A DNA stretch of 64,000 nucleotides, from positions 192,001 through 256,000 of the forward strand of contig CAWCRS010000002.1 in assembly GCA_963798085.1 (NCBI GenBank), in the 5' to 3' direction. The DNA comes from an uncultured Gemmatimonadales bacterium. Lineage in GTDB: Bacteria; Gemmatimonadota; Gemmatimonadetes; Longimicrobiales; RSA9. The translations under genes were made by a program, and so were the position numbers. Positions 42,362 to 53,718 of the stretch are shown here, piece after piece; the first letter of the stretch is position 1; the number at the start of each line of letters is the position of its first letter. The notes beneath the pieces are model-generated. The model had not been told where the DNA came from and made no database searches. It was given only the letters and a program-made list of their open reading frames with translations.

Positions 42362-45783
<3,422 letters not shown>

Positions 45784-45882: not shown

Positions 45883-47119
45883 TCAGCCCGCCTTCCTGAG
45901 GAGCGGGAAGCGGCGCACGGATTCCACGTCCAGCTCATTGCGCCAGACACCCAGCACGTAATCGCGGCCGATCTCTTCCGGCCGGAAGTTCGCGGGCATG
46001 TGGACCGTGCCCAGCCAGCGTCCCTGCCCGTCGAACACCGACCACGGACCATCCGTGTCCACCGCGGTCGTGAAGTCCTGCACCCAGAGATCATTGTCCG
46101 CGTCCACCACCCAGACGTTGCCGTACGCCGGCAGCGTCGCCGTGTGCGGCTTGTCCGCGTAATCCTTCTCGATGGCCGCACGCCGCTCGGGCGCTGCCGC
46201 ATCAACGTCGTGCTGCTTCAGCTGATCGAGCAGCGACGCGGTGACGGCTCGCGGCTGCGCCGGATGGCGCATGCTGAGCAGGTGCCGGCCGTGCACGGTG
46301 TACACATCGACCGTGTAGTCGTCACCCATGCCCCGGTAGTAGAACGTGTCGTGCGCCATGAGCACCGCGAAGCGACCGAAGCGCGGCACGTTCGGCCCCC
46401 AGCTGGGCGTGGTTACGTAATCCGCGTCCGCGAAGGTGCCAATGGTGTCGACGACTGTGCCGTCATCCCTGGTGCGCACGGCGGGCACCATGGTGCGGCC
46501 ATTGCCTTCCTTGATGGCCGCGTCGATGAAGCGGTTGCGGCGCAGCAGGAACGTGCCATCGGAGAAACGCGCGTAGGGAATGGCGCTCAACCCCTGCGAC
46601 CCCTTCTGCTCGAAAGTCACCATGCGCGCGGGAGCGCCGGCAACGTCGAAATACGTCATGCGCGCGTTGCTGGCGTCGAACACCAGGATCGTGTCCGGGC
46701 GGATGAACCACGCATCCCAGATCAGGCGTATCTCGCCGGGCCCCGAGCCCATGTGGCCGATCGTGCTCTGGTATTTGCCGGACGCGTCGAACAGGCGGAT
46801 CTCGGGCGGCCGGCTGGTGTTCACCACGGCAATGCGGCCGTCCGGCAGCGTGAACGTCCGCTTGATGCTTGTGAACTCGTCGTTAGGGCCGGCCGGATGC
46901 TCGCCGATGGCCAGCGTGGGCGCCGCGCCGAGCTTCCATTCTTCGCCTTTCTTCCACAGCGGCGTGCGGCTCTCCACGATGCGCACACCTGCGCTGTCCT
47001 TCGCCTGTGCCGCGGCGGGTGAGCGGGATCCGGAAACTGCCAATCACGCTCACGACCGCCAGCATCGGGAGCTGACGCGTGCTGCTCGACTGCCGGCGCT
47101 GCCATCGGTCGACGCTCAT
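45883..47119 (-). CDS. 6-bladed beta-propeller protein (probable frameshift near 47040)
   Basis: DSAGVRIVES, IGHMGSGPGEIR, VDADNDLWV, VFDGQGRWLGTV, GVWRNELDVESV. Start inferred across a frameshift. Confidence 0.8.
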
Positions 47120-47193
47120 TGAGCCGTTCCCGTCTTCCGGGTAAATGTGCTGGTCGCGAGGGCAGATTATTGGAGCACGCGGTGCGCACGGCG

Positions 47194-47808
47194 TCAACCA
47201 CCTCGCCCGGAATCGGGGTGAGCCATCGCCTGCGCGCGCACGACTGCCTCGCGCTTCGTAAGCAGGCGCTGGAAGGCCTCGGCATCTTTCGGTCGCGCGC
47301 CATCGTGGCCGATGCGCGCCCAGTCCGCATCCTCCGGATCCAGTCCCAGCACCCGCACCGCTTCGGCTGTGCACACGAAGAAATGATGGCGATAGGGCAG
47401 CAGGTAGCCGCCTGCGCGCTCCAGATCCGCCTTCGCTTCCTCGTGACGCGGGTACCAGCGATTCAGGAAAACGGCCATGCCGCGACCGTACCAGATCTCC
47501 TCCGCCGCATTGCGTCGCGCAGCGCGCCGTGGCGCCGGGACGGGCATGGTCGCCTCCAATGCGCGTTTCATTGCCGTCCATGACGCGTAGCCGGCCTCCT
47601 GCGCCACCACGGCCAGCGCGTGCTTGAGCTGGATGCGTTCGTGTTGCGCGGTATCGGCTGCGCTCAGGGTGGCGAAACTGCGCAGGCCGCGGAATCGTGC
47701 GAGCGCCGCAGCAACCGCGTCGGCTTCACCGGAACGCAACTGCTTGAGGAGTCGCCGCGCCGACGCGCGACACGAAGACAGCGAAGGTGTTTCCTGCGGG
47801 CTCGACAT
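47194..47808 (-). CDS. Uncharacterised protein with N-terminal helical domain (LKHALAVVAQEAGYASW motif)
   Basis: GGGAGA SD; N-terminal ARRLLKQL...ALAVVAQEAGYASW type also seen at the N-terminus of ankyrin- and glyoxalase-associated proteins; C-terminal LNRWY..YLLPYRHHFFVC..LGLDPEDADW. Confidence 0.85.
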   Translation of the reverse strand: MSSPQETPSLSSCRASARRLLKQLRSGEADAVAAALARFRGLRSFATLSAADTAQHERIQLKHALAVVAQEAGYASWTAMKRALEATMPVPAPRRAARRNAAEEIWYGRGMAVFLNRWYPRHEEAKADLERAGGYLLPYRHHFFVCTAEAVRVLGLDPEDADWARIGHDGARPKDAEAFQRLLTKREAVVRAQAMAHPDSGRGG

Positions 47809-47945
47809 GGATTTCTCCCTCGATCTGCTGCGCCAGCCCGACGAATTGCAGCATCAAGGAGATCCGTGTGAACCACCCATCAGGGCAGAACGAGGGTGAG
47901 CGTGCTCTTTCTCGGGCGCAGGCGTCCCTCGCCACCTGCGCTCGA
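47809..47945 (-). ncRNA. Candidate structured cis-regulatory leader RNA (pseudoknotted)
   Basis: Four stems, a loop-to-downstream pairing CGAGGG/CCCUCG, and a final stem that covers the SD; see findings. Confidence 0.6.
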
Positions 47946-47973
47946 ATGATCGCGCAATCCCGCCGCCTGTCAA
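47946..47973 (-). promoter_or_regulatory. Putative sigma70 promoter
   Basis: TTGACA at 47973-47968, 16-bp spacer, GATCAT at 47951-47946. Confidence 0.55.
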
Positions 47974-47986
47974 GCCGGCGCGACGC

Positions 47987-48536
47987 TCAACCGGCTTTGT
48001 GTTTGACGTACATCGCGTCGAACGTGGACTGCCAGTTCCTGCCATCGCGCGACACTTCAATGACCTGGTGCACGCGCCCGTCGGCCATGGGCGTGAGCGT
48101 CGTGCGATCCTGAATCTCGCCACCGCTCAGCAGCGGAATGGTTCCCTGAAAGCGTACGGCGCCTCCGGCGAGGGGCGGCTGCAGCTCTTTCTCTTTCACA
48201 CCGCCGGGCGACGACGGGTTTTCCGTGACCCACACCTGTTTCCAGCGACGTGTGGGCGGCTGATAGTAGAAGAGACTCTTCCCTTCACCACCGCCCGCGC
48301 CTCGCCAGTTCTCGAATGAGCGCGCAGCCTGACAGAATCTTCTCCACGCGATCCGTGCCCGCCAGCTGATCGCCCGTGAAGACATCCCATTCGCCCACCC
48401 AGAAGTCGAGCAGGCTGAACGCGGAATCCGCGGCGCAGCCGCCCGCGGTCTGCGCCTGCACCCGGGCGGGTCGCGCTGCCATGCACGCGCACAACGCCGC
48501 GAGCAGCAGCGATCCGATGACAGCGGGTTTGCCCAT
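47987..48536 (-). CDS. Secreted hypothetical beta-barrel-like protein (DUF1579-like; frameshift near 48320)
   Basis: Signal peptide, C..LDFWVGEWDV..KILSGCALI, then in another frame ENW..GKSLFYY..WKQVWV..VIEVSRDGRNW. Confidence 0.78.
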
Positions 48537-48675
48537 GGCGGCTCCATGTTGACGGGAAGCTGCCGCCAATCTGTTGCCGCGTGCCTTCGCGTGGCGAGCC
48601 CGCAGCAAGCCATTCGTCGCACACCACGAGCCGTTGATCACGACAGCCTGCGGGTGCGCCGCACCGGCGGGAGGA

Positions 48676-49533
48676 TCAGACGGTCGCGCTCCAGATGCCG
48701 GTGCGTTGCGGTGCGCGCAGACTGTCCCGACGGCCCTGCAGATAACGCGCTGTCATGGTGACCGCATCCAGTCCGAGAATCTGCGAGAAGCCCAGACCGT
48801 ACAGCCGTTCCCGCAGTACATCCGGATCCATGTGCGTGCGGAACGGTTCGCCCACGGCAGCGGCGCGCGCCGCCAGCGCGCTCTCGCCGTCGCCTGCAGC
48901 GGTAGGCGGCGCACTCATCGTGAACACCAGCTCGCTGCCGCGCGGCAGTCCGGCGGCGAAGCGGAACACGGCATCGACGCCCGCCGCATCGAGGTATACC
49001 AGCACGCCCAGGCAGGCGGCCAGCACGGGCTGCGCCGGGTCCATCCCAGCCTCGACCAGTCGCGGGTGCAACGCAGGCGAGGTGATGTCGGCGGGCACGA
49101 ACACGGTGTTTGGGGGCGGGACCACACCCGCCTGACGCAGCCGTTCCAGCTTGGCCTGCTGCGTGGCCGCCTGGTCGACTTCGAAGATGCGCAGGGCGCC
49201 GGCCCAGGCCGGCTGGCGGCAGGCAAACGTGTCGTAGCCCGCACCCAGAATCACGTACTGCGTCACGCCCCGCTGCACCGCTTCCGCCAGCCGATCCTCG
49301 GCGAACCGGCTGCGTACCACGACGTGCGTGCGCAGCGCACCGGCACGCGGCGCCTGGAAGGACTGGGCGTGTGCGCGAATGCCGGCTTTCGCCTCCGCAT
49401 CCAGCAGGCGCAGGATCACGGGATCGTCGTGCACGCACGGCGCATCGTCCAGCAGCTGGTGCACGGCGCGCAGCAGGGCCGCGCCCAGCGCGGTCGCGCT
49501 CGCGCCCGCTGGCGCAGGTCCCTCGTCGTTCAT
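48676..49533 (-). CDS. SAM-dependent methyltransferase (leucine carboxyl methyltransferase-like)
   Basis: SATALGAALLRA, RSRFAED, QYVILGAGYDT, IFEVDQAATQQAK. Confidence 0.92.
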   Translation of the reverse strand: MNDEGPAPAGASATALGAALLRAVHQLLDDAPCVHDDPVILRLLDAEAKAGIRAHAQSFQAPRAGALRTHVVVRSRFAEDRLAEAVQRGVTQYVILGAGYDTFACRQPAWAGALRIFEVDQAATQQAKLERLRQAGVVPPPNTVFVPADITSPALHPRLVEAGMDPAQPVLAACLGVLVYLDAAGVDAVFRFAAGLPRGSELVFTMSAPPTAAGDGESALAARAAAVGEPFRTHMDPDVLRERLYGLGFSQILGLDAVTMTARYLQGRRDSLRAPQRTGIWSATV

Positions 49534-50273
49534 TTCGCGCGACGAGGCCGCTTCGAGGCCGGCGCGCTGCGCTTGACGTAGCGACGCCGGCGGGCGTCCG
49601 GGAAGCGCTCGACCGCGTAGCGCAGCATGGTGCGCGGCATGCGCGCGTGATGCTCGCGCAGGAACGCTTCCTCCACCGCCATGTCGCGCTTGCCGATCTC
49701 CCGCAGCATCCAGCCGGCGGCCTTGTGGATCAGGTCCTCCTCGTCATCCAGCAGCTGGCGCACCAGCTCGAGCGTGGTCGTGAATTCGCCCTGCTTGATG
49801 TACGTGAACGTGGCCAGGATGGCGACACGCCGCTCCCAGAGACCCGGCGAACGCGCGAGCCGCGCCAGGAGCGAGCGGTCACCTTCGCGCAGGTGCGCAC
49901 CTACAATGTGTTCCGCCGAGCAATCCACCAGATCCCAGTTGTTGATCCAGTGCAGGTGCTCGAGGTAGGTGTCGAAGAGCCGCTGGCGGGTGGCGGCGTC
50001 GCCACGCTGATACTGGTGTACCATGATGAACAGCGCGAGCGCCCGCTCCTCGTGGTAGCGGGAACGCAGCAGGCGGCGCACTTCGGTGGGCGACAGCGCG
50101 TGATAACGCCGAGTCAGCTCACGCAGCACGGGTACCCGGATACCCAGGAACGCATCGCCCTCGCCGTATTCGCCGGGTCCGGTCTTGAAGAATAATGCGG
50201 TACGCCGCGCAATCGTGGCATCCGCCTGGCGTCGCAGCTCGCGTTGCGCCTCCGTCAGCCCCGCCATGGTCAC
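49530..50273 (-). CDS. DNA alkylation repair protein (AlkD-like HEAT-repeat glycosylase family)
   Basis: FFKTGPGEYGEGD.FLGIRVP, NNWDLVD, LWERR, DLIHKAAGWMLREIGK, PRTMLRYAVERF. Confidence 0.93.
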   Translation of the reverse strand: MTMAGLTEAQRELRRQADATIARRTALFFKTGPGEYGEGDAFLGIRVPVLRELTRRYHALSPTEVRRLLRSRYHEERALALFIMVHQYQRGDAATRQRLFDTYLEHLHWINNWDLVDCSAEHIVGAHLREGDRSLLARLARSPGLWERRVAILATFTYIKQGEFTTTLELVRQLLDDEEDLIHKAAGWMLREIGKRDMAVEEAFLREHHARMPRTMLRYAVERFPDARRRRYVKRSAPASKRPRRAK

Positions 50274-52412: not shown

Positions 52413-52510
52413 TTGACATGCGGGGGGATTCGGCTATGTTGCCTTTCGTACCATCCGGATTTCGCCGCCGACTGATTCCGAGACCTGACGCGTGCGCCAG
52501 GTCTTTTTTT
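52413..52510 (+). promoter_or_regulatory. rpsU promoter and leader terminator
   Basis: TTGACA (52413-52418), 16-bp spacer, TATGTT (52435-52440); hairpin agacctg/caggtct followed by a T run (52480-52510) upstream of the start codon. Confidence 0.65.
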
Positions 52511-52534
52511 GCTGCCCCGTTATGGAAGGATCCC

Positions 52535-52744
52535 GTGGTCGAAATACAATTGGAAGAACACGACCGGCTGGACTGGGCACTGAAGCAGTTCCGGCGCCGC
52601 ATGCTGCGCTCTGGACTGTTCAAGGACATGAAGCGGAAGCGCTTCTATGTGAAGCCCAGCGTTGCCCGCAAGGCCAAGGAGCAGGCAGCGCAACGTCGCC
52701 GTCACAAGGACCGGAAGCGCGCCGCGCGCTGGAAGAACGACTGA
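52535..52744 (+). CDS. rpsU: 30S ribosomal protein S21
   Basis: VEIQLEEHDRLDWALKQFRRRMLRSGLFKDMKRKRFYVKPSVARKAK, the S21 signature. Confidence 0.9.
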   Translation: MVEIQLEEHDRLDWALKQFRRRMLRSGLFKDMKRKRFYVKPSVARKAKEQAAQRRRHKDRKRAARWKND

Positions 52745-52800
52745 CCAGCTGAGCGAGCAGGTCCGAGCCAGAGCTGGCCCGGACCCGCTCGTATCACGCG

Positions 52801-53124
52801 TCAGCGACGACCGCCGCCGCCGCCACCACCGGGGCCGCGATCACGCCGGCCACCACCGCCCCCCCCACCACCAAAGCCACCGCGCCCTCCGGGCGGCGGA
52901 CTTCCTCCCGCGGGCGCATCCAGACGCACGACGTTCTCTGCGGCCGGCCCTTTCTGGCCCTGAACCACATCGAACTCGACCCGCTCACCCTCGTTCAGGG
53001 TCCGAAAGCCGGAACCCTGAATTGCTGTGTGGTGGACGAATACGTCATCGCCCCCCTCACGTGTGATGAATCCGAAACCCTTGTCTGGATTGAACCACTT
53101 GACCGTCCCGTTCTCTCTCGCCAT
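52801..53124 (-). CDS. Cold-shock domain protein with Gly/Arg-rich tail
   Basis: [32 protein letters not shown], followed by [19 protein letters not shown]. Confidence 0.93.
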
Positions 53125-53296
53125 GTCGACCGATCCTAAAGGGATGTCACCCGGTGCCCGCGCAAACGCCAACATACGTCGCTAAGTGCAGACGCGCCAT
53201 TGCAAGGCGATTTGCTGGCGCCGGCGCGGCTGACTGGAGCCGCTTCGTGAAGCCCGGCTCGTCAGCCCGGGAACCCGGCCGGAGCAACCGACGGAT

Positions 53297-53405
53297 TTGA
53301 CGTCCTGCTATCGCGCCGTTATCGTGTAGCAGAGCGGGAACCAGATCCGGGCAAGTGCCCGGGGACCACTGAGAGGGACTGGGCCAATGCCCGGTCCCTT
53401 TTTTT
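53297..53405 (+). promoter_or_regulatory. csp promoter and leader terminator
   Basis: TTGACG-N17-TATCGT (53297-53325); hairpin at 53347-53362; terminator-like gagagggactgggc/gcccggtccc plus T run (53371-53405). Confidence 0.7.
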
Positions 53406-53508
53406 GTACCGCTCTGCGTTTCGCGGACACAGTGTCTGCGGGACATGGTGGCGACAAGGTACGGATACCCGTCCCCCGACACCACAACTCGTTCAAGGGA
53501 GTACGGTT

Positions 53509-53718
53509 ATGCGTACGACAGGAGTAGTGAAGTGGTTCAATGATACCAAGGGCTTCGGCTTCATCACGCCGAGCAATGGTAGCAAGGACTGCTTCGTCCA
53601 CCACAGCGCCATCAGCGGTTCGGGCTTCAAGAGTCTGTCCGAAGGCGATCGCGTCGAATTCGACGTCGTGCAGGGTCAGAAGGGTCCGGCGGCCGAGAAC
53701 GTGAGCCGGGTCCAGTAA
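53509..53718 (+). CDS. Cold-shock protein (CspA family)
   Basis: [45 protein letters not shown]. Confidence 0.96.

Follow-up and report, generated by a model that had tools for sequence, protein, structure and literature searches.

Among described RNAs, the translational riboswitches SAM-II, preQ1-II/III and ZTP combine a compact pseudoknot core with long-range loop pairing, sequestration of the SD sequence and a wide range, and the RNAs of type III toxin-antitoxin systems (ToxI-like) are pseudoknotted and encoded just upstream of their protein partner. Closest to the case described here are the E. coli alpha-operon leader (S4, RF00140) and the rpsO leader (S15, RF00114), pseudoknotted 5′ leaders at the ribosome-binding site; that of S4 is a double pseudoknot, and in both cases the regulator of translation is encoded in the operon itself, although the S4 gene does not stand first there (PMC3616713, in part). 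These leaders, as portions of that source describe them, are the precedent for the autoregulation that we propose below.

The window is the whole stretch of DNA analysed, 64,000 nucleotides from an uncultured Gemmatimonadales bacterium. On its minus strand, between a promoter-like site and the ORF of a 204-aa hypothetical protein (47194..47808), lies a leader of about 135 nt with a pseudoknotted structure at the ribosome-binding site, observed by covariation. It shares its position with the S4 and S15 leaders, the double pseudoknot with S4, and, as proposed here, translation control by a protein of the same operon; with the riboswitches named above it shares the compact pseudoknot core, long-range loop pairing, SD sequestration and wide range. 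The leader is a real, widespread double-pseudoknot RNA, coupled to one protein domain.

This RNA is uncatalogued: it matches no Rfam family and no paper on it was found. The first-pass annotation had recognised no named family, and a scan of the window with Rfam 15 agreed, giving no match at gathering level; around the leader, raising the limit to E 10 brought up only mir-74 and Chlorobi-1, each at E about 2, far below cut-off and at chance level. A further Rfam search gave none to E 1, with no r-protein leader, riboswitch class or ribozyme model matching. Literature on PF20066/Glyoxalase_8, PRK05973 and ankyrin-linked RNA motifs, subscription papers being outside the scope, yielded no description of the leader family; ankyrin and glyoxalase are unmentioned in the main texts of PMC11109978 and PMC5737381, whose supplements could hold the motif.

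The leader at the locus and its fold in homologs

The leader and promoter elements reported in the first-pass annotation were all found in place on re-reading the minus strand. The sigma70-type promoter-like site TTGACA-N16-GATCAT (47973-47946; -35 at 47973-47968, -10 at 47951-47946) is the sole such site in 46000-49500, with 0.3 expected. Its spacing is fixed in homologs: a -35-like hexamer stands 14-36 nt before the motif in 67/92 and 46/70 homologous leaders, where a control window gave 6 and 3. A hexamer at fixed distance suggests that the RNA starts at the mRNA 5′ end. No terminator-like site was found near the window gene, and a leader peptide is not evident, internal ATGs occurring in 52/94 and 35/70 leaders.

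Upstream of the gene, at 48676-50273 (minus strand), are a leucine carboxyl methyltransferase-family gene and a DNA alkylation repair gene. Overlapping ORFs on the plus strand at 42362-45783 look by eye like pieces of one propeller-plus-amidohydrolase gene in several frames, possibly from sequencing indels. At 52492-53718 are what we take, by eye, to be an rpsU-like ORF along with two divergent cold-shock-like ORFs, one of which has a glycine-rich tail.

The folding energy of the window leader is unremarkable for its composition (z -1.41; 23 of 200 shuffles as good), so the case for the leader rests on homologs. The protein has 69, and their alignment was used to collect 49 loci from genomes, 71 from metagenomes and 30 from this genome and its kin. 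The same fold, with P1, two pseudoknots (PK1 and PK2), P2 and a long SD-burying P3, lies upstream of homologs in at least eight phyla; the locus record titles name Acidobacteriota, Planctomycetota, Gemmatimonadota, Pseudomonadota, Chloroflexota, Bacteroidota, Ignavibacteria and Krumholzibacteriia, and the domain and leader were also seen in one actinomycete record. Reading 5′ to 3′ in the upstream DNA, the order is P1 (its loop being the 5′ strand of PK1), PK2 5′ strand, purine linker, P2, PK1 3′ strand, variable linker and P3, which in homologs carries the PK2 3′ strand in its loop and the SD sequence in its base.

Both pseudoknots can be placed in the window leader. P1 (47918..47939) pairs 47939-47933 with 47924-47918, and is supported by homolog alignments, with covariation, and by a descriptor of the double pseudoknot. 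Its loop holds the PK1 5′ strand (47926..47932; core GAGGG, 47930-47926), which meets the PK1 3′ strand at 47890..47896 (core CCCUC, 47896-47892); 89-95% of alignment cells are paired and 4/4 core pairs change on both sides, so that the P1-loop pseudoknot drawn earlier from the single sequence is borne out by the homologs. Immediately 3′ of P1 lies the PK2 5′ strand (47912..47917), with 92-99% of cells paired and every pair changing on both sides; its 3′ strand, placed by homolog alignments, is at 47836..47841, within the P3 loop. This is the GCCCGA/UCGGGC complementarity for which a second long-range or switch pairing had been suggested. The pairing stands as a conserved second pseudoknot that fits with the other helices, and nothing shows a switch: it requires only the two outermost P1 pairs to open, and these are likely, from the -10 position, to lie at or before the transcription start.

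P3 (47815..47861) is formed by an anti-SD strand (47861-47853) pairing with 47824-47815, which holds the SD sequence, and by an upper stem (47852-47848 with 47831-47827). The SD-burying final stem of the first-pass annotation shows covarying pairs in homologs, and the gathered and aligned upstream regions as a whole contain the conserved, covarying, SD-sequestering structure. The two small hairpins that it drew fared differently. GAG/CUC is conserved, better drawn as GAG-CACG-CUC, and corresponds to P2 (47898..47907; 3 bp and a variable loop in homolog alignments), but CUGCCC-UGAU-GGGUGG is not conserved. Its site is the variable linker (47862..47889, 19-49 nt in homologs), which has no conserved structure by linker shuffles across leaders, beating 90% of its own shuffles in only 14/77; it is a possible ribosome standby site. 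The purine-rich linker (47908..47911) retains one A in 100% of rows of the second leader type defined below, and probably packs on the helices.

Pairing was scored in three alignments. When 76 leaders were aligned with plain MAFFT (84 passed an 80% identity filter, and 8 of them, from unpublished genomes, were left out), both sides changed in 13/13 tested PK1, PK2 and P2 pairs; 87% of cells pair, where slid partners give 40-54%. Two covariance models, R1 and R2, were built from nested helices only, leaving the pseudoknots outside both. In the R2 alignment (70 leaders) 30/32 pairs change on both sides, and the cells paired amount to 95% for PK1 and 98.6% for PK2. The R1 alignment has 94 rows, among them some near-duplicates; here the figures are 91% for PK1 and 92% for PK2, while P1 (68%) and the upper stem of P3 (65%) score lower owing to register shifts. 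The counts in all three alignments take no account of kinship, and those for nested helices come from fitted pairs. The leaders fall into two sequence types, type 1, to which the leader in this window belongs, and type 2, seen mostly with ankyrin genes, that differ in sequence and keep the topology; several nucleotides are 95-100% conserved, and no column is invariant across types. The double-pseudoknot descriptor scores the window leader above 100/100 shuffles. The 64-kb window has one covariance-model match, that is, a single RNA copy per gene, with no tandem pseudoknot repeats.

The N-terminal domain and its co-occurrence with the leader

The 204-aa protein (model pLDDT 91) has an N-terminal helical domain at about residues 10-87 (47548..47781, minus strand), which is the candidate RNA-binding part with R14 and R18 as candidate contacts, and a C-terminal alpha/beta domain (47194..47511, minus strand), one of many cargo domains, with no family or fold match. 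Fold searches with the whole protein gave no clear match. The N-terminal domain is modelled with confidence (pLDDT 88); against solved folds its best Z was 4.2 (rmsd 4.6, 81 aligned), Foldseek gave no match at E 0.001, and no known RNA-binding protein matched in fold, an absence that speaks neither for nor against binding. ESM Atlas returned hypothetical clusters and one Glyoxalase_8 cluster at 0.80. A sequence match to PDB 9s82, 'JUBO2' (E 0.003), was set aside; it reads like a designed helical protein, and nothing relevant appeared in the literature under the name. At E 0.001 the domain family has 8,082 representatives (clusters at 50% identity). Many members (P0071, P0085, P0121 and others) have two or three matched stretches of the domain profile, and some of them may carry tandem copies.

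The first-pass annotation had likened this domain to the N-termini of ankyrin- and glyoxalase-associated proteins. It falls below the Glyoxalase_8 cut-off (14.7 and 17.2 against 23.7 bits) and is better called a distant relative, 15/39 domain rows reaching E 0.1 or better.

The leader follows the domain and not the cargo, in this genome and across genomes. This genome has seven RNA matches and seven domain genes, paired one to one and differing in their C-termini, which for three of the seven were confirmed as ankyrin and ankyrin plus VOC. Six of these cassettes lie inside 137 kb of one contig (G000:C2:239806-375892) and the seventh on C5; one paralog (L154:1632-2138; G000:C2:375635, plus strand) stops after 168 aa, against 340-530 aa in its relatives, possibly by frameshift or assembly error. 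Cargo among 88 long members scanned includes ankyrin, Clp_N, zf-C4_ClpX, LRR, FliG, FliM, HisKA/HATPase, ClpS, winged helix and TPR, with many members lacking a family; VOC and DUF1835 were seen as further cargo.

Co-occurrence was counted from both sides. Tallies from RNA-model searches are lower bounds where these covered more than 40 genomes, since few candidates are then scored in each. Starting from the domain in 60 loci of four phyla (four centre loci are, or resemble, training rows), the model matches 44 at E 0.01 or better, a further 7 show a recognisable or partial leader by eye, and 9 are without. A second domain-first set, searched with nhmmer, comprised 134 genes, 129 from this phylum and 5 named records, leaving out this genome, three genomes already used, one unpublished genome and repeat matches within a gene. 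The leader is directly upstream in 117, at 185 nt in 1, truncated in 1 and missing in 15, one of which has a leader by eye; there were 2 opposite-strand matches. Starting from the RNA at 26 loci from kin, the domain gene is next in 24 and the second gene in the other 2; without 8 loci from two unpublished genomes it is next in 16/18. In another phylum 11/12 RNAs precede a domain gene and 1 is at a contig end.

In the two loci where the domain gene comes second (L169 and L177), a DinB-family gene stands between it and the leader, and the domain gene starts 2 nt after the stop codon. Between these loci the RNA is 81% identical, the DinB-family gene DNA 73% and the upstream DNA 52%; the insertion is probably one event. 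An orphan leader (L304:1501-1642) has no start codon or domain gene behind it and is probably a relic.

Leader-less genes have no distant same-strand leader in 22 stretches of 5.4-8.7 kb. Viral contigs yielded no protein relative, and of 120 stretches there that fit a loose motif, 80 were tested with R1, which is weaker on that leader type, and 0 matched. A Pseudomonas phage record marked UNVERIFIED (L429:2373-2503) carries domain and leader, the only viral case seen. Among sequencing runs, no RNA holder was listed.

Helix 1 in leader-less domains and in distant relatives

Domains with and without a leader were compared at two basic positions of helix 1. The comparison set 161 domains with leader against 22 without; it dropped the 7 by-eye cases, a PRK05973-type gene, a misclassified locus, two domains without helix 1, the far locus and the truncated locus, and added two leader-less loci from the first homolog collection. 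K/R occupies position 14 in 147/161 domains with leader and in 9/22 leader-less ones, and position 18 in 153/161 and 14/22; both basics are kept in 139/161 and 8/22, the leader-less set being small, partly related and cleaned by eye. An acidic residue at 14 or 18 occurs in 7 of the 22 and in none of the 161. The core residues A17, L20, A69 and W77 are retained in 21-22 of the 22. A first sample showed no difference in net charge of helix 1 (2.55 and 2.5), and 14/161 leader-bearing domains have no K/R at position 14.

On a domain tree built on about 80 columns, the 22 leader-less domains amount to about 15 separate parsimony changes. At a tree distance of 1.0 or more, both basics are present in 21/24 domains with the RNA and in 4/18 without; leader-less domains near a leader-bearing relative keep both in 4/4. 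The pattern is the one expected if the basics at 14 and 18 touch the RNA and decay after it is lost, which is indirect support, drawn from sequence; part of the pattern could come from a salt bridge or from a different partner.

The N-termini of Pfam Glyoxalase_8 (PF20066) and NCBIfam PRK05973 show weak profile similarity to the domain, below both cut-offs (E 0.008 for PRK05973), and by a crude pattern have basic residues at matching helix-1 places in 13/17. Their genes have upstream leaders of like helix order, which match neither R1 nor R2 at E 0.01, nor Rfam. For Glyoxalase_8 the helix order is the same by eye at 12 of 13 loci, with none at the other; PK2 is paired in 98.6% of cells, and 3/6 of its pairs change on both sides. 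By the descriptor, 5/11 Glyoxalase_8 leaders score above all 20 shuffles and 10/11 have at most 2 of 20 as good, although in some it picked other helices than the by-eye drawing. Leaders L403-L413 and L416 keep two motifs, GG(U/C)GAA ahead of the PK1 3′ strand and a CAA-like one ahead of that of PK2. The Glyoxalase_8 leaders probably form a separate RNA family. PRK05973 leaders resemble the fold but score weakly, with 1-9 of 20 shuffles as good, and the eight collected are too few and too alike for covariation. These genes (L417-L424, 'DNA helicase') have in common a conserved leader peculiar to them, about 140 nt ahead of the start codon, with two pseudoknot-like pairings.

Proposed function and comparison with known systems

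The best reading, and in our judgement a reasonably probable one, is that promoter, leader and N-terminal domain make up a portable translational autoregulation cassette. The domain most likely binds the leader RNA and so limits its own production. Binding is favoured because leader-less domains lose the two basic helix-1 residues but keep their core, because the RNA is intact where another gene separates leader from domain gene, and because the distant Glyoxalase_8 relatives carry leaders of like topology. Co-occurrence bears on this less directly, since the three parts are adjacent and linkage alone predicts much of it.

The proposed mechanism is as follows. The promoter would start the mRNA at P1. 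As covariation shows, the leader folds into P1, PK1, PK2, P2 and P3, the last of which pairs the SD sequence. The helical domain would bind this fold through the basic face of helix 1 and stabilise PK2, docking the loop of the SD hairpin on the 5′ knot. Initiation would then be blocked or trapped, and the protein would cap its own level. Without protein, ribosomes might load at a low rate, perhaps through the unstructured linker, which is the weakest step. Promoter, RNA and domain would move as one unit ahead of unrelated cargo domains.

The sign of the control could also be the reverse. In nested folding the mean unpaired fraction of the SD sequence is 0.16 and 0.27, falling no further than 0.11 and 0.17 when the pseudoknot strands are committed; since the SD sequence is mostly paired without protein and the pseudoknots add little, activation by the protein is possible instead. 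The one alternative helix tested, of the purine linker with the anti-SD strand, pairs no better than permuted (p 0.42 and 0.18), and no alternative ON fold was found.

All the evidence for binding fits equally well with an RNA that is a functional partner, the leader-protein complex holding the cargo inactive, localising it, or releasing it when the RNA is cut. The logic would be that of type III toxin-antitoxin systems. An operator would not need so elaborate a fold, and in type 2 leaders PK2 retains sequence as well as pairing (63-69 of 70 rows per pair). We nevertheless find this account unlikely, given an RNA that spans promoter to start codon, pairs the SD sequence with covariation, has no terminator-like site near the window gene and occurs as a single copy per gene, while most cargo domains found are non-nucleases.

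Another unlikely account makes the RNA a small-molecule or ion riboswitch, with the domain merely a co-inherited neighbour or a responder to the same signal. In spanning a variable linker, its long-range loop pairing resembles that of the ZTP riboswitch, and SD sequestration would be an expression platform. The spread over many phyla, with two pseudoknots and several 95-100% conserved nucleotides, counts in its favour, this being the profile of biochemically sophisticated RNAs (PMC5737381, in part). A metabolite riboswitch is however disfavoured by downstream functions that are unrelated apart from the domain, with no common metabolite-related function, and by the lack of covariation in the single alternative helix; the leader types differ in sequence while the topology stays, and the loss of basic residues would go unexplained.

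That loss would be equally unexplained by a device that needs no ligand, whether thermosensor, fixed damper of translation or 5′ stabiliser, hitch-hiking with the 5′ end of the gene; we hold this account to be quite improbable. Default pairing of the SD sequence and an anti-SD helix rich in G-U pairs would suit it, and adjacency explains co-inheritance; but such a device should spread to other genes, and in the RNA-first searches the RNA is ahead of the domain gene or its operon except for one orphan and one truncated case. A self-cleaving ribozyme processing the 5′ end is very improbable, for although pistol and HDV-like ribozymes have double pseudoknots, with a P1-loop pseudoknot and then an A-rich linker, the helix order here differs from theirs, no Rfam ribozyme matched, and no column is invariant across leader types.

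A broader and more tentative proposal, on which we would not yet rely, is an undescribed superfamily of RNA-protein cassettes: a reader domain of 55-85 residues (with the Glyoxalase_8 and PRK05973 relatives) and its cognate leaders, of one topology and several sequence types with specificities of their own. Proteins fused to the domain would gain self-limiting translation, as a plug-in dosage control, and the pairs would be orthogonal.

Two-pseudoknot RNA motifs that span several phyla and are absent from Rfam are rare, and here a candidate partner can be named, together with two candidate contact residues. Should binding hold, a large family of hypothetical N-terminal domains would gain a function, autogenous pseudoknot control would be a portable module beyond ribosomal operons, and divergent RNA-domain pairs could serve as compact translational controllers.

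Compared with the systems described at the outset, the leader departs from ToxI-like RNAs in its single copy, in having no terminator-like site before the gene, in the SD sequence lying inside the fold and in cargo that is mostly non-nuclease. From SAM-II, preQ1-II/III and ZTP it differs in having no model match or coherent metabolic context, and in its link with a protein domain. In its proposed working it comes nearest to the S4 and S15 leaders, yet it belongs to neither group: it has no Rfam match, its genes are not ribosomal and its structure ends before the start codon. Its reader, as proposed here, is a domain fused to many unrelated proteins, and there are several paralogous cassettes per genome.
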